Assembly (NCBI GenBank): GCA_044222065.1 | Contig: JBGAOA010000039.1 | Coordinates: 1 to 42,636 of the forward strand | Direction of reading: 5' to 3' | DNA length: 42,636 nucleotides | Source of the DNA: Candidatus Eiseniibacteriota bacterium | GTDB lineage: Bacteria; Eisenbacteria; RBG-16-71-46 | Shown here: piece after piece, positions 18,978 to 41,296 of the stretch | Layout: every line of letters starts with the position of its first letter | How positions within the stretch are numbered: the first letter of the stretch is position 1 | Translations under genes and position numbers: made by a program | The notes under the pieces: generated by a model | The model's input: only the letters and a program-made list of their open reading frames with translations | The model's database searches: none | Told to the model about the DNA's origin: nothing

Positions 18978-19195
18978 CGCGATCGCCTCCGAGGCCCGGG
19001 ATTCGGAATCGGCGCAGGAATAGTCCACGGCGCGAAGCGCGCGCAACCCGGCCCCGCGTTCGGGGGTGGTCAATTCTGCCGCTTCGGCGCACGCACGCGG
19101 CTTCGCGCTGGAACCGGACGGGCGGGGTCGTGTAGAGGAGGGCTGCACCGTCCCGCGGGCCCCTCGCACCCGCGCACTTCCGTGGAGGCACCCCG

Positions 19196-19705
19196 TTGCG
19201 AAGCGCGTCGCTCGTCCGGCCGTGGTTCGCGTTCCTGCTGCTCGTGTGTTTCGCCCGCGGCGCCGAGGCGCGCGCCACGCTTCGGCCCGGCGATCCTGCT
19301 CCCGAATTCCGCGTCGCTTCGGCGAACGGCCCCGTGACGCTCGCCTCGTTCCACGACCGCGTCGTGCTGCTCGACTTCTGGGCCTCGTGGTGCGCGCCGT
19401 GCGCGCGCTCGTTCCCGTGGATGAACGGACTCTCGGAGCGCCTCGGGGATCGCGGGCTGACGGTGCTCGCGGTTGGACTCGATCACGAACGAGCCGACGG
19501 CCGCGCGTTCGTCGAGCGCCTGCGCCCGCGGTTCTCGATCGCGTGGGACTCGGCCGGGGCGTGCGCCGAGCGCTACGGCGTGACGGCCATGCCGACGAGC
19601 GTCCTCATCGGACGCGACGGAAGAGTGGTCGCCGTGCATCGGGGATTCGATCCGCGCACCGCGCCCGAGTTCGAGCGGCGCATCGAGGAGGCGTGCGCCC
19701 GATGA
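19196..19705 (+). CDS. TlpA-family thiol-disulfide oxidoreductase
   Basis: Signal peptide, DFWASWCAPC, cis-Pro motif AMPTS. Confidence 0.92.
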   Translation: MRSASLVRPWFAFLLLVCFARGAEARATLRPGDPAPEFRVASANGPVTLASFHDRVVLLDFWASWCAPCARSFPWMNGLSERLGDRGLTVLAVGLDHERADGRAFVERLRPRFSIAWDSAGACAERYGVTAMPTSVLIGRDGRVVAVHRGFDPRTAPEFERRIEEACAR

Positions 19706-19938
19706 ACCGGCACCGTTCGACCGCGATCCGCCTCGCCGTGGTCTTCGCCGTCGCGCTCGTCACGGGCGGCTGCGCGGCCGCGAGGGTCAAGCCGTGGGAC
19801 CGGGACCTGCTCGCCCGGCCGTCGATGCGTCTCGTGCCGCTGCCGCTCGAAGCCGAAGCGGACGCGCACATCTACTTCAGCAAGGAAGGCTCGATGGGCG
19901 GCGCCGACGTCGGCGGGGGAGGTTGCGGATGCAATTGA
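19702..19938 (+). CDS. DUF4266-domain lipoprotein
   Basis: Lipobox-like VTGGC, VKPWDRDLLA and C-terminal GGGGCGCN. ATGA overlap with tlpA. Confidence 0.85.
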   Translation: MNRHRSTAIRLAVVFAVALVTGGCAAARVKPWDRDLLARPSMRLVPLPLEAEADAHIYFSKEGSMGGADVGGGGCGCN

Positions 19939-21194
19939 ACGCGGCTCCTCGTCCCGGCGCGCTGCGCCGGCGGCTCGCCGCGGCGGCGTGCACGCTGCTC
20001 GCCGCCGGACTTCCGGTGCGGGCACACGCGCAGGAATCCGCCCCGTGGCAGTTCGAAGGCAGTGCGCTGCTCTACTCGGAGCGCGAGCGCGCGAGCGTCG
20101 TCGAGCCCGTCGCGCGGATCACGAGGCTCTTCCCGGACGGACAGCGCGTCACGGCGCGGCTCGGGTTCGACGCCATGACGGGCGCGTCCCCGAGCGGGGC
20201 CGCGCCGTCGGGCCGCGTCCAGACCGTGACGACGCCGTCCGGCATGCTCAAGACGACCGCCGCCGACCAGATCCCGCTCGATCGCTTCCAGGACGTCCGC
20301 GGCTCGCTCGACCTGGAGTGGGTGCGGCCGCTCGGGGCGATCGCGACGGTCACGACCGGCGGACACCTTTCGCGGGAGAAGGACTACCAGTCGCTCGGCG
20401 CCTCGGGGAAGCTCGCGCTCGAGCTGGACCAGCGGCTCACGACGATCACGCTCGGCGGCGGCGTCAACCACGACGGCGTGTTCCCGATCGGCGGGACGCC
20501 CGTGGGACTCACCGACGGTTCGCTGCCCACGTCGGACGCGACGCAGCGTAAGGACGTCAAGAGCGTGCTCGCGGGCGTCTCTCGCGTCCTGACGCGAAGG
20601 TGGCTCGTCGGCGTGAGCTGGACGCGGAACGCCGAGGAGGGCTACCTCACGGAGCCCTACAAGCGCGTGAGCCGCATCGACCCCGCGACGGGCTATACGG
20701 TGGACGCGCTCACCGAACGCCGTCCCGACCGTCGTCAGCGCACGGCGTGGCTCACGAACTCCGTCTATCACCTGTCGCGCGACGTGCTCTACCTGTCGCA
20801 CCGCGCGTACCGCGACGACTGGGGCGTGCGATCGCAGACGTTCGACGTGAAGGTGCGGCGCGATCTCGACGCCGACCGCTTCGTGCAGCCGCACGCGCGC
20901 TGGTACCGCCAGACGTCCGCGGACTTCTTCACGTTCGGCCTCCCGGACGGATCGACGCTGCCGGCGTACGCGAGCGCCGACGAGCGGCTCGGTCCGCTGC
21001 GCTCGCTGACGCTCGGTGCGACCTACGGCTTCCGGCTCGGCGCCACGCCCGGGCAGTTCACCGTGCGGGCGGAGTACCTGCGCCAGTGGGGCGACGGACA
21101 TCCGCCGGACGCGATCGGCGTTCAGCGCACGTTCGACCACATGCCGCCCGTGAGCATCGGGGAAGTGCTCGTCGGCTACTCCGTCGGGTTCTGA
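19929..21194 (+). CDS. DUF3570-domain outer-membrane beta-barrel protein, candidate flavinylation substrate
   Basis: MQL start overlapping DUF4266; FDAMTGASPSG, SREKDYQS, YRDDWGV and ADERLG; terminal Phe (GYSVGF). Confidence 0.85.
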   Translation: MQLNAAPRPGALRRRLAAAACTLLAAGLPVRAHAQESAPWQFEGSALLYSERERASVVEPVARITRLFPDGQRVTARLGFDAMTGASPSGAAPSGRVQTVTTPSGMLKTTAADQIPLDRFQDVRGSLDLEWVRPLGAIATVTTGGHLSREKDYQSLGASGKLALELDQRLTTITLGGGVNHDGVFPIGGTPVGLTDGSLPTSDATQRKDVKSVLAGVSRVLTRRWLVGVSWTRNAEEGYLTEPYKRVSRIDPATGYTVDALTERRPDRRQRTAWLTNSVYHLSRDVLYLSHRAYRDDWGVRSQTFDVKVRRDLDADRFVQPHARWYRQTSADFFTFGLPDGSTLPAYASADERLGPLRSLTLGATYGFRLGATPGQFTVRAEYLRQWGDGHPPDAIGVQRTFDHMPPVSIGEVLVGYSVGF

Positions 21195-21200
21195 GGGCGC

Positions 21201-22118
21201 ATGAAGCGGCGCGACGCGACGGCGGCCGCCGGGGCGTCGCGCACGCTGCGGCGCGACGGCGACACGTTCGTCGGGCGGTTCGTCGCGATGGCGAGTCCGT
21301 GCGAAGTGCTCGTGGACACGGACTCGCGCCCGCTCGCGCGGCGGGCGCTCGCGATCGCCGCCGACGAAGCGCAGCGCATCGAGCGCAAGTTCAGCCGCTA
21401 CCGTTCGGACAGCGTGGTCGCGCGCATCAACGCCTCGAACGGCGAAGCGGTCGACGTCGACGACGAGACGGCGAATCTGCTCGACTACGCGGCCGAGTGT
21501 CACGCGCTCTCGGAGGGGAGCTTCGACGTTACGTCGGGCGTGCTGCGCCGCGTGTGGACGTTCGACGGCGGTGAGCGCGTACCCGACCCGCAGGCGGTCG
21601 CCGGCGTGCTCGCGCACGTCGGCTGGAGCCGGGTCGCCTGGGCGCGGCCCCGGATCACGCTCGAGCGCGGCATGGAAATCGACCTGGGCGGGATCGGGAA
21701 GGAGTACGCGGTGGACCGCGCCGCGGGACGGGTCGGCGCCGAACTCGACGCGCCGGTGCTCGTGAACTTCGGCGGCGACCTGTTCGCGAGCGGACCGCGC
21801 CGCGGCGGACGAGCGTGGATCGTCGGGGTGGACGATCCCGAGCGGACGGGCTCGGCGGCGCCGCTGCGGATCGAGATCGAGCGCGGCGGACTCGCGACGA
21901 GCGGGGACGCGCGCCGCTTCGTGCGCTGGCAGGGGCGGAGGCTCGGACACATCCTCGATCCGCGCACCGGCTGGCCGGTCGCGGACGCTCCGGCGGCGGT
22001 GACGGTGCTCGCCGGCACGTGCCTCGAGGCCGGCACGCTCGCGACGCTCGCGATCCTGCACGGATCGCGCGCGCGGACGTTCCTCGAAGGCGAAGGCGCG
22101 CGGCACTGGGTGTTCTGA
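21201..22118 (+). CDS. apbE: FAD:protein FMN transferase ApbE
   Basis: AMASPC, FSRYRSDS, FDVTSG, DLGGIGKEYAVD, VNFGGD, LATSGD and HILDPRTGWP. Confidence 0.93.
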   Translation: MKRRDATAAAGASRTLRRDGDTFVGRFVAMASPCEVLVDTDSRPLARRALAIAADEAQRIERKFSRYRSDSVVARINASNGEAVDVDDETANLLDYAAECHALSEGSFDVTSGVLRRVWTFDGGERVPDPQAVAGVLAHVGWSRVAWARPRITLERGMEIDLGGIGKEYAVDRAAGRVGAELDAPVLVNFGGDLFASGPRRGGRAWIVGVDDPERTGSAAPLRIEIERGGLATSGDARRFVRWQGRRLGHILDPRTGWPVADAPAAVTVLAGTCLEAGTLATLAILHGSRARTFLEGEGARHWVF

Positions 22119-22127
22119 ACCGGCCGC

Positions 22128-22142
22128 GTTGCAACGTGCACG
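22128..22142. promoter_or_regulatory. Palindromic candidate operator GTTGCA-acg-TGCACG
   Basis: Its 13-nt core TGCAACGTGCACG (22130-22142) is the exact reverse complement of 31684-31696; about 120 nt upstream of the cytochrome gene. Confidence 0.5.
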
Positions 22143-22262
22143 CGGGCGCGCCCCTTCAGCGCCGCGCACGGGCTCCGAGACTGCGAAGCGCGCGGGGTGT
22201 CTCTCGCGAGTCAGCCCGCCGCTTCGACCTCACGCTCGCGTCCCGTCGCCTGAGGAGCCCGC

Positions 22263-23300
22263 ATGGAACGCCCGGCTCTCGTGCTCGCGCTCGTTCTCGC
22301 CGTCACCGCATCGTCCTCCGCGCCCACGTCCTCGCGGCGCGACGCGTCGTCCGCCGATCTCCATCCGGGCGGCGCGACGCGCGCGGCGAGCGGGAACTTC
22401 GCCGACGCACGTCCGCGCTACCACGTTCGCGGGGCAATGGTGTGCGCCGACTGCCACCTCGCGCACACCTCGGCCGACTCGAGCCGCGGCCCGAGCGCGC
22501 TCGTGCCGGCGGACCCGCTGGACGTGTGCCTGCGCTGCCACGACGACCAGGAGCGCATTCCGGACGTCGTGGGCGCGGACGCGAACGGTCTCCGCCAGCG
22601 ATCGGCGGGCCACTTCGCGGCGCCCGGTGTGCGCAACCTGAACGGCCACGACCTCGGTCGCGGGCTCGGCGCCGAGGACCTGTGCGAGCGCTGCCACGGG
22701 GGCGGCATGGCGGGCGCGAGCGTGACGTGCACCGACTGCCACGATCCGCACGGCAACGGCGTCGCGCGCAACCTGCGGTGGGCGAGCGCCCCGGACCGGA
22801 CGCCCGATCTCGGGCTGTTCACGAACCCGGCCGCGAGCGGGCCCGAGCGCTACGAAGCGCGGAGCGTGACGTACGGCACCCTCGATTCGGACGAACTGCG
22901 GGAGGCGAGCAGCGTGTGCCTCGACTGCCACCACGTGTTCAGCGGCCGCATCCACGTGGATCGCGACGGGGACGGGGTCCACGAGCGCCACCCCGCCTAC
23001 GACAGCGAACGGCACTCGCCGAACACGATCGCACGCGGCCGCGCGAAGCAGACGACGTCACCCGCGCACTGGAATGCCGGCGACGGAGCGGGATTCGGAG
23101 AGACGCCGCGGCTGCGCACCGTCGTGCGGGGCGCGCGCGACTTCGCCGGCGCGTCACGGGTGGATGCCGATCGGAACGGCGTGTTCTGTCTGAGCTGCCA
23201 CCGGGCGCACGGATCGGACCAGCCCTTCGCGCTCACCTACGACGCGTCGCCCCGGACGGCCCCGGCAGGCTGCCTCCAGTGCCACGTCGTGGGTGAGTGA
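22263..23300 (+). CDS. Exported heptaheme cytochrome c
   Basis: Signal peptide and seven CxxCH motifs: CADCH, CLRCH, CERCH, CTDCH, CLDCH, CLSCH, CLQCH. GAGGAG RBS. Confidence 0.92.
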   Translation: MERPALVLALVLAVTASSSAPTSSRRDASSADLHPGGATRAASGNFADARPRYHVRGAMVCADCHLAHTSADSSRGPSALVPADPLDVCLRCHDDQERIPDVVGADANGLRQRSAGHFAAPGVRNLNGHDLGRGLGAEDLCERCHGGGMAGASVTCTDCHDPHGNGVARNLRWASAPDRTPDLGLFTNPAASGPERYEARSVTYGTLDSDELREASSVCLDCHHVFSGRIHVDRDGDGVHERHPAYDSERHSPNTIARGRAKQTTSPAHWNAGDGAGFGETPRLRTVVRGARDFAGASRVDADRNGVFCLSCHRAHGSDQPFALTYDASPRTAPAGCLQCHVVGE

Positions 23301-28320: not shown

Positions 28321-29505
28321 CTAGAACTCGATCGAGAGCTGGGCCGCGACGAGGGAGGAGCGTTCCCGACCGTCCACGAAGGGCCCCGAGCGCGAGCGCG
28401 TGTGCTGGTAGACGAGCTTGCCGCGCACGGAGGAGTCGAAGCGGTAGCCGAGACCGCCTTCGAAGCGGTCGAGGTCCCGGTCCCACGGCGTCGGTCCGCC
28501 CGAGGACCCGGTGATCTCGCCGAAGCGCTCGACGTCCACGCGGCCGGCCGCGTAGATGCCCGAATCGAACAGGTACTTGAGCTCGACGTAGCCCGCGGTC
28601 ACGTCGAGATCGCCGACGTACGGAGTCTCCCACGCGTTGCGCGCGCCCTCAGCGCGCAGTTCGGCGTGGCCCGCGAGCCATTCGAGGTCGGCCATCAAGA
28701 GCCGCTGGTGGTAGTCCGTCGCGCGCTTTCCGGGCGGGAGCGCGGGTTCGAGCGTCGTGAGCAAGTAGGGTCCGAGGGCGCCCGACACGCCGATGCGCAG
28801 GGCCGGGTGCGGGGTCAGCCCGAGGCGTCCGAGCACGGTCTTTCCGGCGTTCTCCTCGCGCGACGTCGAGCCCCAGCCGGGCGTCCCCTGCGTCACGCCG
28901 AGCGCGGCCTCGAAGGGACGCGCGCTGCCGGCGAGCGTGACGCCGACGTCCCAGTAGGAGTCGTCCACGATCGGCATCCCGACGCCTTCGCGGTAGCCGT
29001 GGTAGTTCACGCCCCATTGGCCGCTCCCCGCGGTTGCGAGCAGGGCGTCGGCGTCCGGCGCGACCTCGTAGAACAGCATCGTCGTGTGGTGCTGGTAGAG
29101 GAGCGGCGTGCCGACGAGCGGGTTGTGATCCGAGTAGGTGCGCGGCGCCCACGTGCCGAGCGCCCACGGGATCTTGCCCGCGAGCACGTGCGCGTCGCGC
29201 TCGGGGAACGGCGTGAACACGGCGTAGGCCCCGTCCACGTAGGGCGCGGTCGCGTCCCGGAGCACGGTCTGCGCGAAGACCTGAATGCGGTCGTTGACGC
29301 GCGCGTCGGCGAACACCCGGAGACCGTAGGGATCGAACGGCGAATCGCCGCGCGTCAGTCGGTTGAGTGGGAACGCGGGGCTGTCGTCCACGGCGACGAC
29401 GTCGAGCAGTCCGCGGAAGCGCACCTCGGCGGCCCCGGCGGCGCCGGAGCCGGCGAGTGCGGCGGCCGCGGCGAGCGGCGCGATGACGCGGCGAGCGAGG
29501 CGCAC
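28321..29505 (-). CDS. Putative outer-membrane beta-barrel protein (porin-like)
   Basis: Signal peptide, amphipathic beta strands and C-terminal LVAAQLSIEF (BAM-type terminal Phe). GTG at 29505 with GGAGG. Confidence 0.78.
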   Translation of the reverse strand: MRLARRVIAPLAAAAALAGSGAAGAAEVRFRGLLDVVAVDDSPAFPLNRLTRGDSPFDPYGLRVFADARVNDRIQVFAQTVLRDATAPYVDGAYAVFTPFPERDAHVLAGKIPWALGTWAPRTYSDHNPLVGTPLLYQHHTTMLFYEVAPDADALLATAGSGQWGVNYHGYREGVGMPIVDDSYWDVGVTLAGSARPFEAALGVTQGTPGWGSTSREENAGKTVLGRLGLTPHPALRIGVSGALGPYLLTTLEPALPPGKRATDYHQRLLMADLEWLAGHAELRAEGARNAWETPYVGDLDVTAGYVELKYLFDSGIYAAGRVDVERFGEITGSSGGPTPWDRDLDRFEGGLGYRFDSSVRGKLVYQHTRSRSGPFVDGRERSSLVAAQLSIEF

Positions 29506-29540
29506 GAATCCTCCGGGGAGCAGGTGGGAAGTTCGTGCTC

Positions 29541-29568
29541 TTATCGGCCCTCGGCCCGGCGCGCTTGA
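29541..29568 (-). promoter_or_regulatory. Putative sigma-28-type promoter of the beta-barrel gene
   Basis: Minus strand TCAA-N16-GCCGATAA; the -10 box equals the FliA consensus. Confidence 0.65.
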
Positions 29569-29723
29569 GCGCGCCGGCCGCATTCCGACCACGGGGCTCG
29601 CCAGGCTCCGTTTGAAAACCCGATTGCCGCGTTGGCTCGGTCGTTCGTCACTGCGGAGTGCCCTGCGGACACACCTCGTTCCTCACTCCCTCGCCGCCTT
29701 GCACTCGGGTTTTCGAACGGAGC

Positions 29724-31698: not shown

Positions 31699-31855
31699 TC
31701 CGGCGTCGGCGGGCGGGCGATTCCGTGCGAGCTGCGAGATCTGACCCGGGCCGCACGACTCCCGGACTTGTGCGAGGCGGTCGAGGCGCTAGAATCGCGC
31801 GCGTTCCGTCGTCATTGGCACCCGCTTTCCTCTCCCAATCTCTCCGGAGGCGGTC

Positions 31856-34800
31856 GTGTTCGCGTCCCGCTCTGCTCCCTCGGCGGCCCTCTTCCTCGCG
31901 CTCGTGCTGGCCTTCGCCTCGCCGGCCGCGGCCGTCACCGTTCCCGCTCAGTTCGTGGTCGAGAACGCCGTCACGAACTCGACCTTCAACGTGCCGGTCG
32001 GCATGGCGTTCCTGCCCGACGGCCGGTTCCTCGTCGCCGAGAAGCAGGGCCGCGTCCTCATGGTGAAGAACGGCCTGCAGCAGGCGGCGGTCGTGTTCTC
32101 GAACCAGAACGAAGTCCTCGACAACACGGACCGCGGGTTCCTCGGCGTGGCGGTGGATCCGAACTACTTCGTGAACCACTTCGTCTACTTCCTCTACACC
32201 GTGGACCCGGACTCGAACGGGGTGGACGACAATCTCTACGGGTTCGGACGCCTGACGCGTTACCGCATGCGCACGACCGGCGACACGAACACGGTGGACC
32301 CGACGACGCGCACCGTGCTCATGGGCACCGACTGGCGCCACGGGCCGACGATCCTCTCGAACTCGCACACGATCGGCGCGCTGCGCTGGGGGCGCGACGG
32401 CTCGCTGCTCGTCTCCTCGGGCGACGGAGCGGACTTCAACGGCATGGACGCGGGCGGCCGGCAGCCGACGGGCTTCGGCCCCGGCAAGACCGACCCGTAC
32501 GAGGACATCGGCGCGTTCCGCGCGCAGGACATCACGAGCCTCAACGGCAAGATCCTGCGGATGAACCCGCTCACGGGTCACGGCTACGCGAGCAACCCGT
32601 ACGCGACGTCGGATCTCAACTCGAACCAGTCGAAGGTCTACCTGTACGGCGTTCGCAACACGTTCCGCTTCGGCGTGCGACCGGGTACGGGCTCGACCGA
32701 CACGACGACGGGCTTCCCCGGTCAGGTCGCGATGGGCGACGTCGGCTGGGACACGTGGGAAGAGCTGAACATCAGCACGGCGCCCGGGCAGAACTTCGGC
32801 TGGCCGTGCATCGAGGGGCCGTTCCCGGCGGGCGCGTACCAGGCGGCGACGCCGGCGCACAACGACTGCAGCAGCGTCGGCACGCCTTCGAATCCCACGG
32901 GCTACACGTACCCGCCGTCCTACTGGCACCACACGACGCCGAGCCTCAGCAATCCCGAAGGCGTAATGGGCAACGCGTCGGTCGGCGGCGTGTTCTACAC
33001 GGACTCGCTCTATCCGAGCGCCTATCGCACGCGCTACTTCTTCGGCGACTACGTCGGTTCGTTCGTCCGCGTCGCGACCTTCGATTCGAACGGGCTATTG
33101 ATCTCGAACGATCCGTTCGGCGACAACATGGACAACCCGGTGGACTTCGCGCGCAATCCGCTCGACGGAAACGTGTACTACGTCTCGATCACGACCGAGC
33201 AGGTCCGCCGCATCCGCTGGACAGGCACGACGGGCGGGAACGCGGCGCCGATCGCACAGGCGCTTGCGACCCCCTCGAGCGGCGGCGTGCCGCTCAACGT
33301 GTCGTTCTCGAGCGCGGGGACCTACGACCCGGACAACAACACGCTCACGTACGCGTGGAACTTCGGCGACGGCGGCACCTCGAGCGCGCAGAACCCGAGT
33401 CACACGTACGTCGCGCCGGGCGCCTACATCGCCACGCTGACCGTCACCGACAGCCGCGGCGGCGTCGGAACGCGCAACGTCTCCATCAGCGTCGGCAGCG
33501 GCTCGGTGTTCCCGACGACCGCCGTGCTCGACGACTTCAACCGGCCGAATGGTCCGATCGGCGGCGCGTGGGTGAACCAGACGTCCGCGCTCTCGATCGT
33601 CAGCAACACGATGCGCGAGACCGGGCTCACCGCGACCACCGTGTGGAGCGGCCAGGAGTTCGGCGCGGACCAGGAGGCGTACATCACGATGCAGACGATC
33701 ACGCCCGGCGCCGAGGAAGTGAACCTGATGCTCAAGGTCCAGGGCCTCTCGTGGAGCGACGGTCACATCGAGGTGCGCTACGACGACAATCCGGGCCGCG
33801 TGCGCGTCGGCACGTACAGTCCGGCGCTGGGCTGGCAGGCGTGGGGCGAAGTGAACCCGCTCACGTTCTCGCCCGGCGACCGGTTCGGCGCGCGCGCGTT
33901 CGCCTCGGGACTCGTCGAGGTGTTCAAGAACGGCGTCGTGCAGGGGCAGGTGTCGGTGCTCGGCTGGCCGTTCGCGGCGAACGGCGGATACGTCGGCCTG
34001 ACCATCACGGGCGCGAACGCGACGATCTTCGACGACTTCGGCGGCGGCGACTGGGTGCCGCAGCCGCCGGTCCCTGTCGTTCAGGTGCTGTCGCCGAACG
34101 GCGGCGAGAACTGGGTCGGCGGCAGCTCGCACACCGTGACCTGGCTCGCGACCGACGACATCGGCGTCACGTCGGTGGACGTGGACTTCAAGGACGGCGC
34201 GACCGCCCCGTGGATCCCGATTGCGATCAACCTCTCGAACAGCGGCAGCTTCACGTGGTTCGTCCACAACATGCCGACGACGGCGGCGCGCGTTCGCGTG
34301 CGCGCGCACGACCTCTCGGGCAACGTCGGCGCCGACTCGAGCGACGCGAACTTCACGATCTCGGCGACGCCGGGCGGCATCGTGCCGACGACGCTGCGCG
34401 ACTTCTTCCAGCCCGGCACGCAGCCGCTCCGCGGCGGAGACTTCGTCTCGAGCAGCACGTGCAACCAGTGCCACTCGGGCTACGACAGCGCGGTCGAACC
34501 CGGCTTCAACTTCAAGGGCGTCATGATGGGACAGGCGGCGCGCGATCCGCTGTTCTACGCCTGCCTCGCCGTCGCGGAGCAGGACGCGCCGTCATCGGGC
34601 GACCTGTGCATCCGCTGTCACTCGCCGGGGGCGTGGCTGTCGGGCAAGAGCCAGCCGACGAGCGGGGCGAACATCGACGCGCTCGGGCGCGACGGAGTGA
34701 ACTGCGACTTCTGTCACCGCATGGTCGACCCCATCTACCAGCCGGGCGTGAGCCCGGTCGAGGATCTCGCGGTGCTGAACGGCATGCTGCCGGCGCACGT

Positions 34801-36277
34801 GCCGACGACGTACGGCAACGGCCAGTACGTCGTGGACAGCGACACGCGCCGTCGCGGGCCGTTCGCGGACGCCGCGGCGCCGCACTCGTTCCTGCAGTCG
34901 CCGTTCCACACGAAGAGCGAGATGTGCGCGACGTGCCACGACGTCTCGAACCCGGTGTTCGACCGGACCGGTCCTTCGGACTACACGCCGGGCCCGCTCA
35001 ACGCCGCCGCTCCGGCGATCGCCGTGAATTCGCTCATGCCGCTCGAGCGCACGTACAGCGAGTGGCTGAACAGCGCGTACCCCGCCGGCGTCTACGCGCC
35101 GGACTTCGCGGGGAACGCCCCGGGCGGCATCGTGTCCGACTGCCAGGGCTGTCACATGCGCCAGGTCACGGGGCGCGGCTGCAACGACGTCAACGCGCCG
35201 GTGCGGAACGACCTCCCGGTGCACGATCTCACCGGCGGAAACGCGTTCATGCCGGGCGTGATCGGCACGCTCTATCCGGCCGAGACCGACACCGCGGCGC
35301 TCAACAACTCGGCGAACCGCGCGCGGGCGACGCTGCAGAAGGCGGCGCTGCTCGACGTGACCGTCGCGGCCGAAGGCGACAGCTTCCGCGCGAGCGTGAA
35401 GGTGACGAACCGCACCGGACACAAGCTGCCGACGGGATACCCCGAAGGCCGGCGCATGTGGATCTCGGTCGTCGCGCGCGACGAGAACGGCGCGGTCGTC
35501 TACCAGTCGGGCCACTACGACGGCGCGACCGGCGTGCTCACCGAGGACGCGGACGCGCGCGTGTACGAGGCGCACCTCGGCATCTCGCCGGCGCTCGCGT
35601 CCGCGATCGGGCTCGCGCACGGACCGTCGTTCCACTTCGCGCTCAACGACACGCTCTACAAGGACAACCGCATTCCGCCGCTCGGCTTCACGAACGCGGC
35701 GTTCCAGCCGTTCGGCGGCGCGCCGGTGGACCCGACGATGCCGGCGCCGCGATACGCCGACGGACAGAACTGGGACACGGCGACGTACCCGCTGCCGGGC
35801 TCGGCGCGGTCGGTCGCCGCGACGCTCTACTACCAGACGACGTCGAAGGAGTACGTCGAGTTCCTCGCCGCGCAGAACACGACGAACGGCGCCGGCGCCA
35901 CGCTGCTCAACGCGTGGACGAACAACGGCCGCGGTGCGCCGGTTCCGATGGTCGGCGACTCGGCGACGATCGAAATCGTCGGCACGGGGGATCCGGTCGC
36001 GCGTCCGCTCGCGTTCCGCGTGCTTCAGAACCCGTTCCGCGGCACGCTCGACCTGTCGCTGTCGCTGCCGCGCGCCTCGGACGTCACGCTCGAGGTGCTC
36101 GACGTCACGGGCCGGCTCGTGCGGCGCACGCCGTACGGACGCCTCGCCGCGAGCGAGCATCACCTGCGCTGGGACGGGCACGACGCGTCGGGCGGAAGCG
36201 CGGGCCCGGGTCTCTACTGGGTCGTCGCGCGCGTGGACGACCGCCGGCTCGTGAAGACCGTGGTGAGGCTGCGCTGA
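31856..36277 (+). CDS. Secreted multidomain protein: GSDH/PQQ-dependent sugar dehydrogenase-like propeller + PKD + lectin-like + Ig-like + pentaheme cytochrome c + FlgD-Ig/T9SS-CTD-like domain
   Basis: Signal peptide; PVGMAFLPDGRFLVAEKQG, RGFLGVAVDP, SLNGKILR, YGVRNTFR and NFGWP; PKD (YAWNFGDG); SPNGGE; CNQCH, CIRCH, CDFCH, CATCH and CQGCH; NPF...DVTGRLVR...WDG...PGLYW tail. Confidence 0.9.
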   Translation: MFASRSAPSAALFLALVLAFASPAAAVTVPAQFVVENAVTNSTFNVPVGMAFLPDGRFLVAEKQGRVLMVKNGLQQAAVVFSNQNEVLDNTDRGFLGVAVDPNYFVNHFVYFLYTVDPDSNGVDDNLYGFGRLTRYRMRTTGDTNTVDPTTRTVLMGTDWRHGPTILSNSHTIGALRWGRDGSLLVSSGDGADFNGMDAGGRQPTGFGPGKTDPYEDIGAFRAQDITSLNGKILRMNPLTGHGYASNPYATSDLNSNQSKVYLYGVRNTFRFGVRPGTGSTDTTTGFPGQVAMGDVGWDTWEELNISTAPGQNFGWPCIEGPFPAGAYQAATPAHNDCSSVGTPSNPTGYTYPPSYWHHTTPSLSNPEGVMGNASVGGVFYTDSLYPSAYRTRYFFGDYVGSFVRVATFDSNGLLISNDPFGDNMDNPVDFARNPLDGNVYYVSITTEQVRRIRWTGTTGGNAAPIAQALATPSSGGVPLNVSFSSAGTYDPDNNTLTYAWNFGDGGTSSAQNPSHTYVAPGAYIATLTVTDSRGGVGTRNVSISVGSGSVFPTTAVLDDFNRPNGPIGGAWVNQTSALSIVSNTMRETGLTATTVWSGQEFGADQEAYITMQTITPGAEEVNLMLKVQGLSWSDGHIEVRYDDNPGRVRVGTYSPALGWQAWGEVNPLTFSPGDRFGARAFASGLVEVFKNGVVQGQVSVLGWPFAANGGYVGLTITGANATIFDDFGGGDWVPQPPVPVVQVLSPNGGENWVGGSSHTVTWLATDDIGVTSVDVDFKDGATAPWIPIAINLSNSGSFTWFVHNMPTTAARVRVRAHDLSGNVGADSSDANFTISATPGGIVPTTLRDFFQPGTQPLRGGDFVSSSTCNQCHSGYDSAVEPGFNFKGVMMGQAARDPLFYACLAVAEQDAPSSGDLCIRCHSPGAWLSGKSQPTSGANIDALGRDGVNCDFCHRMVDPIYQPGVSPVEDLAVLNGMLPAHVPTTYGNGQYVVDSDTRRRGPFADAAAPHSFLQSPFHTKSEMCATCHDVSNPVFDRTGPSDYTPGPLNAAAPAIAVNSLMPLERTYSEWLNSAYPAGVYAPDFAGNAPGGIVSDCQGCHMRQVTGRGCNDVNAPVRNDLPVHDLTGGNAFMPGVIGTLYPAETDTAALNNSANRARATLQKAALLDVTVAAEGDSFRASVKVTNRTGHKLPTGYPEGRRMWISVVARDENGAVVYQSGHYDGATGVLTEDADARVYEAHLGISPALASAIGLAHGPSFHFALNDTLYKDNRIPPLGFTNAAFQPFGGAPVDPTMPAPRYADGQNWDTATYPLPGSARSVAATLYYQTTSKEYVEFLAAQNTTNGAGATLLNAWTNNGRGAPVPMVGDSATIEIVGTGDPVARPLAFRVLQNPFRGTLDLSLSLPRASDVTLEVLDVTGRLVRRTPYGRLAASEHHLRWDGHDASGGSAGPGLYWVVARVDDRRLVKTVVRLR

Positions 36278-36940: not shown

Positions 36941-37675
36941 TCAGCGCGCGCGCGCGTCGCGGTAGCGCGCGGTCGCATCCTCCCAGTCCACGACGTTCGC
37001 GAACGCCGCGACGTACTCCGCGCGGCGGTTCTGGTAGCGCAGGTAGTAGGCGTGCTCCCACACGTCGATGCCGACGAGCGGCGTGCGGCCCGCCGTGAGC
37101 GGCGAATCCTGGTTCGGCGTCGTCTCGACGCGCAGCGCGCCCGCCGCGTCGCACGAGAGCCACGCCCAGCCGCTTCCGAACACCGAGAGCGCCGCGGCCG
37201 AAAGCTTCTCGCGGCACGCTTCGAAGGCGCCGAAGTCGCGCTCGACCGCCTTCGCGAGTTCGCCGGACGGCTGCTTCGCGCCCGACTTCGCGAGGCTCGT
37301 CCACAGGAGCGAGTGGTTGTAGTGCCCGCCGCCGTGGTTGCGCACCGCGGCGCGCAGGTCCTCGGGCACCGCGGCGAGATCGCGCACGAGTCGATCGAGC
37401 GTCCAGCCGGCGACCTCGGCGCGGCCGGTCACGGCCTTGTTGAGGTTCGCGACGTACGCCGCGTGGTGCTTGTCGTGGTGGAGCTGCATCGTCGCCGCGT
37501 CGAGGTGCGGTTCGAGCGCGTCGAAGGCGTAGGGGAGCGGCGGCAGCGTGAAGGGGCCCGCCGGCGCGGGCGGTGAGGCGGACGCGGTCGGAGCGGCCTC
37601 GGCGCCGGCCGGGTGCGGCAGCGACAGTGCAACGGCCCCGAGCGCGAGTGACTGGAGCGCCTGACGGCGATTCAT
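36941..37675 (-). CDS. sodA: Fe/Mn superoxide dismutase (Mn-type signature) with Tat signal peptide
   Basis: MNRRQAL twin-arginine leader; HHDKHH, NHGGGHYNH, FGSGWAW, NQD and DVWEHAYY. Confidence 0.93.
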   Translation of the reverse strand: MNRRQALQSLALGAVALSLPHPAGAEAAPTASASPPAPAGPFTLPPLPYAFDALEPHLDAATMQLHHDKHHAAYVANLNKAVTGRAEVAGWTLDRLVRDLAAVPEDLRAAVRNHGGGHYNHSLLWTSLAKSGAKQPSGELAKAVERDFGAFEACREKLSAAALSVFGSGWAWLSCDAAGALRVETTPNQDSPLTAGRTPLVGIDVWEHAYYLRYQNRRAEYVAAFANVVDWEDATARYRDARAR

Positions 37676-37885
37676 CGGAGTTCCTCCTCGAGGGTCTGTG
37701 ACGACGCACGCGGCGCGAGCGGGCGCAGTCTAGCAGCGGTCGGGTGCGGCGACTCGCCCGTCCGTCCGCGCGCCGCGCTCGACGGAAAACTCGCCCCGCC
37801 CGCGGACCGTGGACTACCGTGCGCCGCTCGTTCGACACGCGGCCGCCGTCGCGGCCGCTCGCACCACTCGCTCTCCGGGGGATTC

Positions 37886-40800
37886 ATGTCGCACGCCGCA
37901 CTGGAACTCCGCGCGCGGAACCGCCGCGCGGCCGCCGCCGCACTGACGCTCGCGCTCGTCCTCGCCGGAGGCGCGCCGGCGCGCGCCCACGTCGGAGCGC
38001 ACGAGGCCGGGACCGACACCGCGAAGACGACGGCCGACACGACGAAGGCGGCCGACACGGGGTGGTTCGTCAACGCCGCCCACGGCCCCGCCGACACGGT
38101 CCGCTTCGAGGTGCGCGAGGGCACGTGGATGTCGGTAGACGTGAGCCCGGACGGGCGCACGCTCGTGTTCGACCTGCTCGGCGACCTCTACACGCTGCCG
38201 ATCGGCGGCGGGCGCGCGACGCGCATCACGAGCGGACCCGCGTGGGACTACGGACCGCGCTGGTCCCCGGACGGACGGCGGCTGCTCTTCACGAGCGATC
38301 GCGGCGGGTGCGACAATGTGTGGGCGAGCGACGCCGACGGTTCGAATCCGCGGCCCGTGACGGGCGAGAAGCGCGTCGTGAACCAGGGCGACTGGAGCCC
38401 CGACCAGGAATGGGTCGCGTGCAAGAAGCGCCTCACGGACTACAGCTCGCTCGGCACGGCGGAACTGTGGCTCGTGAATCTGCGCGGCGGATCGGGCGTG
38501 CAGATCACCGCGAAGGGCGAACTGCCCGAGGCGGGCGAGCCCGTGTTCTCGCCGGACGGCCGCTACCTCTATTACAGCGCGCGGCCGAGCCGGTACCAGT
38601 ACGACCGCAACGTGTTCGCGGGCATCTACCAGATCCGCCGCTACGACCGCGTGACGGGGGAGAGCACGCCGATCACGGACGGCTTCGGCGGCTCGTGCCG
38701 CCCCGTCGTCTCGCCGGACGGCAAGACGCTCGCGTTCGTGCGCCGCGACCGGCTGAAGACCGTGCTCGGACTGTTCGACCTCGAGCGCGGCACCGAGCGC
38801 ATCCTGTGGGACGGGCTCGACGACGACCTCATGGAGAGCTTTTCGTTCAACGGCGTGTACCCGTCGTTCTCGTTCACGCCCGACGGCAAGTCCATCGTCG
38901 TGAGCGGCGGCGGTCAGCTGCAGCGCGTGGACGTCGCGACCGGCCGCGCGAGCGTGATTCCGTTCACGGCCGCGGTCGAGCAGGTCGTGAGCCGCGCGCT
39001 CCGCTTCCCGCAGCAGGTCGGCACCGACCGCTTCCGCGTGCGCATGATTTCGTGGCCGACGTGGAGCCCGGACGGGCGCACGCTCGTGTTCGCCGCGGTC
39101 GGCAGCCTGTGGCGGCAGTCGCTGCCGAACGGCACGCCGCAGAAGCTCGCGACGCAGGGCGGCCTCGCGTACGCGCCGGCGTTCTCGCCGGACGGCCGCA
39201 CGCTCGCCTACGTGTCGTGGAACGACGCCGAGGGCGGTCACGTGTGGGCGATGCCGGCGGGCGGCGGCGCGTCGAAGCGCGTCACGAGCGTCGCGGCGCA
39301 GTATGCGAACCCCGCGTTCTCGGCGGACGGCTCGAAGCTCGCGCTCGTGCGCGGCGACAACGCGCCCTTCCGCGGCCACGACCTCGGCGACGAAGGCCGG
39401 CAGGAGATCGTGTGGGTGCCCGTGCGCGGCGGCGAGGTCCGGCACGTGCTGGACGTCGAGTCGCGCGGCTCGGCGCGGCGCATGCCGCGCGTGTCGTGGA
39501 ACCCCACGGGCGAGCGGATCTTCTACGTCGCGACCGAGAACACCGGACCGTTCGACCAGAAGACGAGCCTCTGGTCCGTGCGTCCCGACGGCACCGACCG
39601 CATCGAGCACCTGACGTTCAAGTACGCCGAGGAAGTGATCCCGTCCCCGGACGGCAAGTGGGCCGCGTACGTCGAGCAGTTCAATGCCTACCTCACCGCG
39701 CTGCCGCAGGCGGGGCGGAAGGCGGTCGAGATCTCGGGCGAGGACGGACCCGTGCCCGTGAAGAAGTTCACGAACGACGAGGGCGCGGACTGGGTGCAGT
39801 GGGCCGACGGCGGCCGCTCGATCACGTGGTCGTTCGGACCGCGGCTCTTCCGCACGCGTCTCGACTCCGTGCTCGCGCTCTGGGACCGCGAGGCGCTCGC
39901 GAAGGGCAAGAAGGCGTCGCCGCCCGCGGCCGGCGCGAAGGGCGACGCGCCGAAGGAGGCCGCGGCGACGCTCGCGTGCGACACGCTCGAAGTGTCGCTG
40001 TGGCTGCCGCGCGCGAAGCCGGCGGGCACGTACGCGCTCACGGGCGGCCGGCTGATCACGATGAACGGCGACGAGGTCATCGAGGACGGCACGATCGTCG
40101 TCGAGGGCAACCGCATCACGGCGGTCGGGGCGACGGCGGCCGTGACGCTGCCCGCGGGCACGCGCACGTTCGACTGCCGCGGCAAGACGCTCATGCCGGG
40201 CATGATCGACTCGCACGCGCACCTGCACTACAACGCGCTCGACATCATTCCCGAGAAGCAGTGGCCCTACTGGTGCAACCTCGCGTACGGCGTCACGACG
40301 ACGCACGACCCGTCGGCGAGCACCTACGCGGTCTTCACGCAGTCCGAGATGGTGGAAGCCGGCGTCATGAAGGGCCCGCGCACGTTCTCGACGGGCTACA
40401 TCCTGTACGGTGCGGACGGTCCCGGGAAGGCCGTCATCAACAGCCTCGACGACGCACGCCACCACCTGCGCCGGCTCAAGTCGCTCGGCGCGTTCAGCGT
40501 GAAGAGCTACATGCAGCCGCGTCGCGAACAGCGCCAGTGGGTGATCGCCGCCGCGCGCGAGGAGTCGATGCTCGTCGTGCCCGAGGGTGGCGGCAACCTC
40601 GAGATGGACCTGTCGTTCGTCGTGGACGGCCACACCTCGAACGAGCACGCGCTGCCGGTGACGCCGGTCCGCGACGACGTCGCTCAGCTCTTCGGCCACA
40701 GCGGCACGGTCGAGACGCCGACGCTGCTCGTCGCTTACGGCGGGCTCTCGGGCGAGCACTGGTTCTACCAGCACTACGACGCGTGGGCGAACGAGAAGCT

Positions 40801-41296
40801 GCTGCGGTTCTACCCCCGCGGGGCGCTCGATGCGCGTGCGATCCGCCGTCCGGTGATGTCCATCGACGGCGACTGGCACCACATGAAGGTCGCGGCCGGC
40901 TGCAAGCGCATCCTCGAGCGCGGCGGCAAGGTCGGCTTCGGGGCGCACGGCCAGCTGCAGGGCCTCGGTCCCCACTGGGAGCTGTGGGGGCTCACGCAGG
41001 GCGGCATCCGCAACCACGACGCGCTCAAGGCGGCCACGATCACGGGCGCCTGGGAGCTCGGGCTCGACCGCGATCTCGGCAGCCTCGAGCGCGGCAAGCT
41101 CGCCGACATCGTCGTCATGGACCGCAATCCGCTCGACTCGATCGAGAACAGCAACTCGATCCGCTGGGTCGTCAAGAACGGCGAGGTGTTCGACGGCGAC
41201 ACCATGCGTCAGGTGTGGCCGGCCGAGCGGCCTGCGCCGCGCTTCACGTTCCAGACGCTCGGCGGCAGCCTGCCGCCGCCGTCCGCGGCGCACTGA
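37886..41296 (+). CDS. Exported amidohydrolase-family protein with N-terminal TolB/PD40 beta-propeller repeats
   Basis: Signal peptide; EGTWMSVDVSPDG and many (W/F)SPDG repeats; MPGMIDSHAH, SVKSY, GAHGQLQG and GSLERGKLADIVV. Confidence 0.92.
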   Translation: MSHAALELRARNRRAAAAALTLALVLAGGAPARAHVGAHEAGTDTAKTTADTTKAADTGWFVNAAHGPADTVRFEVREGTWMSVDVSPDGRTLVFDLLGDLYTLPIGGGRATRITSGPAWDYGPRWSPDGRRLLFTSDRGGCDNVWASDADGSNPRPVTGEKRVVNQGDWSPDQEWVACKKRLTDYSSLGTAELWLVNLRGGSGVQITAKGELPEAGEPVFSPDGRYLYYSARPSRYQYDRNVFAGIYQIRRYDRVTGESTPITDGFGGSCRPVVSPDGKTLAFVRRDRLKTVLGLFDLERGTERILWDGLDDDLMESFSFNGVYPSFSFTPDGKSIVVSGGGQLQRVDVATGRASVIPFTAAVEQVVSRALRFPQQVGTDRFRVRMISWPTWSPDGRTLVFAAVGSLWRQSLPNGTPQKLATQGGLAYAPAFSPDGRTLAYVSWNDAEGGHVWAMPAGGGASKRVTSVAAQYANPAFSADGSKLALVRGDNAPFRGHDLGDEGRQEIVWVPVRGGEVRHVLDVESRGSARRMPRVSWNPTGERIFYVATENTGPFDQKTSLWSVRPDGTDRIEHLTFKYAEEVIPSPDGKWAAYVEQFNAYLTALPQAGRKAVEISGEDGPVPVKKFTNDEGADWVQWADGGRSITWSFGPRLFRTRLDSVLALWDREALAKGKKASPPAAGAKGDAPKEAAATLACDTLEVSLWLPRAKPAGTYALTGGRLITMNGDEVIEDGTIVVEGNRITAVGATAAVTLPAGTRTFDCRGKTLMPGMIDSHAHLHYNALDIIPEKQWPYWCNLAYGVTTTHDPSASTYAVFTQSEMVEAGVMKGPRTFSTGYILYGADGPGKAVINSLDDARHHLRRLKSLGAFSVKSYMQPRREQRQWVIAAAREESMLVVPEGGGNLEMDLSFVVDGHTSNEHALPVTPVRDDVAQLFGHSGTVETPTLLVAYGGLSGEHWFYQHYDAWANEKLLRFYPRGALDARAIRRPVMSIDGDWHHMKVAAGCKRILERGGKVGFGAHGQLQGLGPHWELWGLTQGGIRNHDALKAATITGAWELGLDRDLGSLERGKLADIVVMDRNPLDSIENSNSIRWVVKNGEVFDGDTMRQVWPAERPAPRFTFQTLGGSLPPPSAAH

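Follow-up and report, generated by a model that had tools for sequence, protein, structure and literature searches.

A putative exported protein joining a six-bladed propeller to a pentaheme cytochrome in Candidatus Eiseniibacteriota

What could a protein do that carries a dehydrogenase-type propeller and five c-type hemes on one chain, between a signal peptide and a sorting tail? The question is raised by a gene of 1473 amino acids (aa) in a stretch of 42,636 nucleotides, here called the window, from a Candidatus Eiseniibacteriota bacterium (GenBank assembly GCA_044222065.1, contig JBGAOA010000039.1, positions 1 to 42,636 of the forward strand). A preliminary description had proposed an extracellular oxidoreductase that binds a glycan or surface, oxidises a sugar with pyrroloquinoline quinone (PQQ) and relays the electrons through its own hemes. 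Our best reading, to which we give a probability of about 0.5, is an exported quinohemoprotein whose propeller would feed its own hemes. Its architecture, folds, residue patterns, ancestry and recurrence are described below; its cofactor, substrate, coupling, acceptor and export are inferred.

Gene and domain architecture

The reading frame at positions 31856-36277 of the forward strand is a single gene of 1473 aa plus stop, as had been proposed. It starts with GTG and is preceded by a Shine-Dalgarno-like GGAGG site 5 nt upstream, and its G+C content at third codon positions (GC3) stays at 0.91-0.97 in all 15 blocks of the gene. The gene is solitary, with glnS upstream in divergent and sod downstream in convergent orientation. 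Neither a conserved operon nor conserved neighbours were found in 13 compared loci, three of which have glnS again, and no sigma-70-like promoter or downstream terminator was detected at the gene. Its features are the following, with the evidence in brackets (T9SS, type IX secretion system; CTD, C-terminal domain; Ig, immunoglobulin).

31846..31850, + strand: Shine-Dalgarno-like GGAGG, 5 nt ahead of GTG (sequence)
31856..36277, + strand: whole gene, 1473 aa plus stop, solitary (sequence; 13 loci compared)
31856..31933, + strand: probable Sec signal peptide, aa 1-26 (by eye; AxA site conserved in alignment)
31934..33229, + strand: six-bladed GSDH-type propeller, aa 27-458, with H171, R267 and N268 kept, V400 and N427-P-V429 non-canonical, and R93, R271 and H359 clade-specific (Pfam, model, alignments)
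33239..33499, + strand: PKD domain, aa 462-548 (Pfam PKD_4, E 2e-21)
33512..34060, + strand: conserved domain, family not assigned, aa 553-735; beta-sandwich and lectin labels unproven (homolog alignment)
34073..34369, + strand: Ig-like domain of SPNGGE type, aa 740-838, common to the six-heme paralog family (weak Big_7 match, alignments)
34388..35989, + strand: pentaheme and Ig-stem module, predicted c552/MccSep (PHC) fold, aa 845-1378 (model, fold search, sequence)
34460, 34607, 34703, 34925 and 35141 (span 34460..35155), + strand: five CxxCH, aa 869, 918, 950, 1024 and 1096 (sequence)
34526..34528, + strand: M891, in the column of the c552/MccSep distal His; Met in 106 of 112 (alignments)
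35045..35050, + strand: E1064-R1065, where MccSep and c552 have Cys (MccSep heme-2 ligand C239; register uncertain by one) (alignments)
35420..35455, + strand: loop H1189-K-L-P-T-G-Y1195-P-E-G-R-R, with Y1195 in the column of the MccSep catalytic Sec325 (alignments)
36008..36274, + strand: FlgD-Ig / T9SS-CTD-like tail, aa 1385-1473 (Pfam, TIGR04183, paralog comparison)

Most parts of the preliminary description were recovered. Pfam identified GSDH at aa 45-321 (E 7e-28; 98 bits against a cut-off of 25), PKD_4 at aa 462-543 and FlgD_ig at aa 1401-1459 (E 6e-10, above cut-off), and the five CxxCH motifs lie where they had been placed. The isolated tail gave 19 bits with the T9SS CTD model TIGR04183, just under its cut-off of 23, and TIGR02604, which covers CxxCH proteins of PVC type, gave 16-22 bits against a cut-off of 122. 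The SPNGGE-type domain is conserved and stands in the order that had been given, with a Big_7 match (aa 740-814, E 1e-3) below cut-off, and the signal peptide was judged by eye from its AxA site, where A26 is nearly invariant in 25 sequences. The lectin-like beta-sandwich did not fare so well. The domain at aa 553-735 is conserved, with 40-63% identity in all 24 full-length homologs, yet it had no match to Pfam, NCBIfam or PDB sequences, and an embedding search returned the weak leads PelX_N and GH43_C2, both at 0.93 with low shared-feature counts. The lectin label is thus only a lead, and the glycan-binding step that had been proposed is unproven.

It was also considered that the gene could be an assembly artefact joining two genes, since the genome is an assembly of 131 contigs (94% complete) and, in one relative, tandem copies are read through; nothing else spoke for it. 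In that relative (L014:5554-14508, G081:C20) a frame of 2985 aa takes in both fusion copies, and the first of them ends in a different frame, which makes two genes with an indel probable. Against an artefact stand the 24 full-length homologs, the fusion in 12 genomes, the uniform GC3, and DNA contigs which cover the gene without indel in four of four runs (one of them, X1, may be the source sample). Individual contigs span the joins from propeller through PKD and sandwich to Ig and from sandwich through Ig to hemes. The gene is therefore genuine and not a chimera, and the artefact is refuted. At least half of the gene's words are present in 14 of the 24 runs listed, those with a label being sludge, biofilm, wastewater and bioreactor samples. 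RNA contigs of four runs also contain short exact matches along the gene, a result with no silent-stretch DNA control and thus not showing expression.

Origin and recurrence of the fusion

A search with the heme region gave 2399 hits among 7991 scored, of which the best 120 were examined. They comprise 24 full-length proteins (1442-1571 aa, 57-64% identity) that contain each of the six parts, one cut fragment, and 95 shorter proteins of about 900 aa, in which a sixth CxxCH lies in an N-terminal mono-heme domain (95 of the 96 shorter hits carry six CxxCH). The close homologs with a label belong to Ca. Eisenbacteria. Propeller and heme module were found in one frame in 12 of the 206 genomes of the phylum, all in the family of the window and in five genera (10 were fetched and checked).

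Trees were built from subsets of 71 heme modules and 45 propellers by quick IQ-TREE runs (LG+G4, no bootstrap). The fused heme modules formed one clade inside the six-heme proteins (SH-aLRT 99) and the fused propellers one clade inside heme-less propeller-PKD proteins (SH-aLRT 98). As each half forms a single nested clade, this fusion arose once, in one Ca. Eisenbacteria family, where a block of propeller, PKD and unassigned domain replaced the mono-heme domain ahead of the Ig-pentaheme-tail block. The replaced domain is itself a redox module, which speaks for the quinohemoprotein reading. Both parent types are retained in the window's own genome, as two propeller-plus-tail genes (contigs C20 and C66) and one six-heme gene (C84). 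The six-heme paralog (G000:C84:16950-19666, L005; mono-heme, Ig, pentaheme and tail) is broken by a frameshift just past its third CxxCH and is either a pseudogene or an assembly error.

The pentaheme family is large, with 2906 clusters at 50% identity (E 0.001) and about 3100 stretches in species genomes. From the best 150 pentaheme proteins, 36 long ones were picked for their length and scanned. A GSDH propeller is present in three of these (P0268, P0269 and P0279), and P0338 is a fourth whose start resembles the last part of such a propeller. The propellers of these other fusions are 23-35% identical to that of the window and 19-36% to each other, and their heme modules fall in other clades, a single clade being rejected (p-AU 5e-32). 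Fusion of a GSDH propeller with a pentaheme module thus happened independently at least three times, a repetition that fits electronic coupling of the two. GSDH was the sole recurring catalytic domain among the fusions scanned (3 of 36), and two of 79 pentaheme genome loci, both planctomycete, have a separate GSDH gene directly downstream. In P0283 the same pentaheme module shares its chain with a Lysyl_oxidase domain (Pfam E 3e-25), which is a quinone-enzyme fold as well.

No published description of this architecture was found in a literature search outside which lay most subscription journals and the closed supplements to two preprints, on MccSep and on PQQ-6beta, where such proteins might be listed; the preliminary description, too, knew of no characterised protein with it. 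The passages covered of a sludge secretome survey do not describe the architecture (PMC11495043), and a study of PQQ-6beta proteins mentions unspecified heme-domain fusions of AA12-type propellers (10.64898/2026.07.10.737718).

Propeller fold and active-site residues

The model of the propeller (pLDDT 96) supported the GSDH assignment. Its six best structural matches are PQQ aldose dehydrogenases, headed by Asd of P. aerophilum (3A9G; Z 42.0, rmsd 2.2, 327 residues aligned), and below them come HHIP (Z 34) and soluble glucose dehydrogenase (sGDH), with Z 32-34, and AA12 with 29-31. H171, R267 and N268 align with E. coli YliI and are kept in 26 of 26 fused propellers and in 98, 97 and 97, respectively, of 98 heme-less relatives. 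Their counterparts in CcPDH, His363, Arg430 and Asn431, hold the o-quinone of PQQ, and His144 of sGDH is the catalytic base (PMC6881789). The acidic metal loop (D295, E302 and E303) is almost invariant over the 124 sequences of the clade. On balance, catalysis of PQQ type is probable for the propeller. We also considered that the heme module could make a protein-derived quinone in the propeller in a MauG-like way, and this idea was dropped because W298 and W301 are variable positions and the majority of propellers have no such module.

Pentaheme module

The heme module was modelled with a pLDDT of 97 and matched the penta-heme c552 of T. tepidum (5ZE8) with Z 25.2, rmsd 2.6 and 335 residues aligned, the next match having Z 9.7; Foldseek gave E 3e-19 to 5ZE8, and a profile-profile match to small c552-like PHCs reached E 3e-41. 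The link to MccSep/ExtKL rests on sequence, as 9WT8 is absent from both fold searches. The module is thus predicted to belong to the PHC fold family, which comprises T. tepidum c552, MccSep, PtdA and the PHCs of cable bacteria, some of the last being fused to truncated hemoglobin (PMC11976967; 10.1101/2023.11.21.568154). MccSep reduces polysulfide in the periplasm; four of its hemes have bis-His ligation, and heme 2, ligated by His and Cys, lies beside Sec325 (10.1101/2025.11.18.688581).

Conservation was counted in an alignment (A3) of 112 diverse modules and not in the 79 genome loci, where the conservation of GHKLP is circular because this motif was the pattern of the scan. The three distal His columns (H1010, H1123 and H1189) are kept in 110, 112 and 112 modules, and the fourth is Met in 106. 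At the other positions we found E/Q/D1064 in 109, R1065 in 102, Y1195 in 89 (F in 10, H in 8), H1260 in 103, K1190 in 110 and R1199 in 111, and E1197 is also more than 90% conserved. The protein has Y1195 at the position of Sec325 and L1063/E1064 at that of the Cys, and it scored 31.6 bits with NF040886 against a cut-off of 250. As Tyr takes the place of the Sec and the Cys ligand of heme 2 is missing, it is not a polysulfide reductase of MccSep type. A conserved polar set nevertheless appears to occupy the working site of MccSep, an Arg/Tyr/His pocket which we take to be reminiscent of NrfA-type active sites; alternatively, H1260 could be the sixth ligand of heme 2. Since the heme part seems to belong to a fold with a characterised enzyme member and keeps a conserved pocket, it would not be a generic wire. 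The plain relay that had been proposed for the hemes is weakened by this, while the repeated GSDH-pentaheme fusion remains in agreement with electron transfer between the two parts.

Other families of the phylum have small pentahemes resembling c552 (L028-L032) with one more type of active site, in which Met takes the place of the Sec and Met (or Leu) lies near the position of the heme-2 ligand.

Export and electron partners

The genome encodes CcmE, hence a Ccm-type heme maturation, as well as SprA and PorV, the last beside a Peptidase_C25 gene (PorU-like), and the same tail closes 152 of its open reading frames (ORFs), of which six contain CxxCH. The T9SS-like route of the preliminary description is thus backed by genes, and the protein would be its cargo. 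Close flavobacterial homologs carry Por_Secre_tail over cut-off. More widely, the tails of the homologous pentaheme proteins differ between lineages, with Por_Secre_tail in Bacteroidota, dockerin-like repeats in planctomycetes and further tails typical of their lineages (these last judged by eye), so that surface export looks like a trait of the pentaheme family. Two cultured Flavobacteriaceae isolates have a stand-alone pentaheme protein with a canonical T9SS sorting domain (L070:4902-6854 and L085:4893-6860). A six-CxxCH protein with the export tail in the window's genome (G000:C72:35312-36883) belongs to a different cytochrome family.

Regarding the way out for the electrons, the genome has an MtrB/PioB porin gene beside a decaheme gene (G000:C35:52510-55713), with 13-, 18- and 19-heme genes on the same contig and 20 multiheme ORFs in total. 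This suits a narrower variant of the quinohemoprotein, with a PQQ dehydrogenase as propeller and five hemes that just relay electrons, most likely to a porin-cytochrome conduit or to surface cytochromes, so that external sugars feed respiration. MtrB is present in 9 of the 12 fusion-bearing genomes and in 18 of the 77 other genomes of the family, which is a lead only, since these kin are not independent. A cable-bacteria PHC fused to truncated hemoglobin has been read as a relay (PMC11976967), and H1260 as a sixth ligand of heme 2 would fit too. However, three of the 12 fusion genomes lack MtrB, pentaheme and MtrB co-occur across the phylum at chance level (21 observed, 23.4 expected), no lytic polysaccharide monooxygenase (LPMO) was found in the genome, and the polar set at the active-site position of MccSep would be more than a wire needs. 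We consider this variant improbable. For want of an LPMO partner, the analogy with fungal cellobiose dehydrogenase (CDH) that had been drawn is limited to the layout.

Proposed mechanism

In the quinohemoprotein reading, the protein would be exported by Sec and receive its five hemes from the Ccm system in the periplasm. The folded protein would then pass a reduced T9SS-like channel by means of its tail. Outside, the propeller would use H171/R267/N268 and the non-canonical residues R93, R271 and H359 to hold Ca2+ and either PQQ that has been scavenged or a similar o-quinone, and would oxidise a substrate of aldose type. Contact between the tethered domains would let electrons reach the heme chain, as in fungal CDH and pyranose dehydrogenase (PDH), the His/Met heme being a plausible entry. 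Within this reading their exit would be somewhat likelier at heme 2, where the E1064/R1065/Y1195/H1260 set may reduce a small acceptor, than by continuation to the surface cytochromes of the cell. Complex prediction for propeller and heme module gave a score of 0.00 twice (mark 0.32) and counts neither way.

Several observations weigh against this mechanism, and they concern the cofactor, the coupling and the export. In the four Asd-type structures aligned, blade 6 has Arg-x-Arg and blade 5 a basic residue, and the PQQ ligands named are Lys377 and Arg408 in sGDH and Arg273 and Arg621 in CcPDH (PMC6881789). By sequence alignment these places read N427-P-V429 and V400 here, and over the clade Lys or Arg occurs at the Arg-x-Arg place in 2 of 124 members and at the Lys place in 11. 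Nor were the AA12 substitutes found, with K/R in 1 of 124 at the place of Arg273 (blade 1, aa 47-49) and in 2 of 124 at aa 424-430, and the metal loop reads G-D-V-G-W instead of the NERD/NGRD motif of AA12 and PQQ-6beta-Ln. The propellers of the other pentaheme fusions and of the downstream GSDH genes likewise lack Arg-x-Arg. As for supply of the cofactor, pqqC was found in none of the 206 genomes of the phylum (the S. meliloti pSymB control was detected), the window's genome gave no PqqD or TENA match, and its best PqqU-like match has 27% identity and lacks Y99, R365 and R536. A secreted Teredinibacter heme protein with a similarly annotated propeller bound no PQQ and did not oxidise glucose (PMC10916295). 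The use of PQQ, which had been assumed, is therefore weakened: of the PQQ- and Ca-binding residues, the His, the Arg-Asn pair and the acidic loop stand, and the Lys and Arg-x-Arg are gone.

The same evidence speaks for a propeller that is not a PQQ enzyme and has another cofactor or merely binds a ligand or surface like HHIP, which ranks directly behind the Asd enzymes. The pentaheme would then be the sole catalyst and the front half a targeting arm, in line with the many adhesion-type domains borne by the pentaheme family. We regard this as unlikely, although it is the strongest of the alternatives. H171, R267, N268, D295, E302 and E303 are almost invariant over the 124 sequences, as expected for an active site, and many bacteria with six-bladed PQQ proteins do not make PQQ but scavenge it (10.64898/2026.07.10.737718; PMC12124388); an exported enzyme needs no importer. 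Moreover, R271 and H359 are present in 124 of 124 sequences, and R93 is Arg in 113, Lys in 5 and Val in the paralog on C20. H359 would lie near the place of CcPDH His539, and the three residues are candidate replacements for the missing carboxylate-binding ones.

Coupling is questioned by the spacer of about 385 residues between propeller and heme module, by the many non-redox domains to which the pentaheme is also fused, by the 98 of the best 120 propeller hits that have no heme, and by the genomes, among which 79 have the pentaheme, 62 the propeller and 25 both, with 23.8 expected by chance. The map of heme ligands was drawn through alignments with a bridging family, may be off by one and has no coordinates. 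Both modules could be active yet uncoupled, the fusion having come from frequent shuffling among tail-bearing surface proteins and only saving a secretion event. Each module occurs alone with its own tail in the same genome (the propellers of C20 and C66, the six-heme form of C84), and both families are promiscuous. Against this, one domain order, a near-constant length of 1442-1571 aa and about 60% identity have been kept across five genera, and no catalytic domain other than GSDH recurs among the scanned fusions. We find uncoupled modules the least credible of the readings that take the gene as real. As for export, a search of 31 genomes yielded neither GldM nor PorP, with controls that were silent too, and for this reason export of the protein is only putative.

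Comparison with known systems

The propeller shares with the soluble PQQ aldose and glucose dehydrogenases (Asd 3A9G, E. coli YliI 2G8S, the T. thermophilus protein 2ISM and A. calcoaceticus sGDH 1C9U) the six-bladed fold (Z 33-42), the catalytic His, the Arg-Asn pair and the acidic metal loop. In contrast with Asd and sGDH, it lacks the blade-6 Arg-x-Arg and the blade-5 Lys, has the invariant R271 and H359 and a Cys pair (318/338) in addition, and is fused to five further domains and tagged for export.

CcPDH (AA8-AA12-CBM1) and CDH are also secreted, with a catalytic domain tethered to heme and accessory domains and electron transfer between domains (PMC6881789). They have one b-heme where this protein has five c-hemes, Arg273 and Arg621 of AA12 have no counterpart here, and no LPMO partner was found.

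With the PHC family (c552 5ZE8, G. sulfurreducens MccSep/ExtKL 9WT8, PtdA, and sPHC and lPHC of cable bacteria with their hemoglobin fusions) the module shares five hemes and an Ig-like stem, the predicted fold (Z 25.2), the motif order and the three distal His columns. It differs in that Met replaces one His, the heme-2 Cys is missing, Tyr stands at the Sec position, the module exceeds the chain of 5ZE8 by about 150 aa, and it is putatively exported and not periplasmic.

A propeller and a c-type heme on one chain are also found in PQQ-6beta proteins with a heme domain, in TIGR02604 proteins of PVC type, in Teredinibacter TERTU_3803 and in type II quinohemoprotein alcohol dehydrogenases. These have other propeller classes and, as far as is known, small cytochrome domains rather than a PHC. 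The protein would therefore work like CDH/PDH and the quinohemoproteins and belong by predicted fold to the GSDH and PHC families, and its residues differ from those of Asd/sGDH, AA12 and MccSep.

Other genes of the window and its genome

Downstream of the gene (window 36941-41296) lie a convergent gene for an Fe/Mn superoxide dismutase with a Tat-like leader and one for an amidohydrolase with a PD40 propeller, neither of them a conserved neighbour. Consecutive genes at 19136-23300 (+ strand) encode a redoxin, a DUF3570 barrel, an ApbE flavin transferase and a cytochrome with seven CxxCH. The gene at 28321-29592 (- strand), upstream of an MCP gene, encodes a protein with a signal peptide and a C-terminal Phe, barrel-like by eye and with no Pfam or NCBIfam match. 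Elsewhere in the genome (G000:C85:5502-11679) two tandem genes each encode a beta-propeller-like region, two CxxCH (peroxidase-like by eye) and the same tail, and thus add to the propeller-heme fusions; they lie near genes for 34- and 20-heme proteins.

Significance

If the quinohemoprotein reading is true, the protein would be a bacterial multiheme counterpart of fungal cellobiose and pyranose dehydrogenases in a phylum without a described redox secretome, and folded multiheme cytochromes could be cargo of T9SS type. With its built-in chain of five hemes, such a dehydrogenase would also be an obvious candidate for passing electrons directly to electrodes. Two questions become testable. One is whether PQQ serves at all as cofactor in the very common GSDH propellers that have lost the canonical arginines, and the other concerns the role of the pentaheme family of Tyr/Met type, which has stand-alone members in the two cultured flavobacteria (L070 and L085). 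A broader view, which we offer as speculative and think more doubtful than not, is that the pentaheme proteins (2906 clusters) may be a large undescribed family of surface redox enzymes, distinguished by a Met ligand and a Glu/Arg/Tyr/His active site and sent out by lineage-specific tails, which would have repeatedly captured six-bladed propellers with a third, undescribed mode of PQQ binding. The fusion described here would then be the first multiheme quinoprotein to pass a T9SS-like channel, and it would oxidise sugars outside the cell with a small acceptor or cytochrome conduits receiving the electrons.

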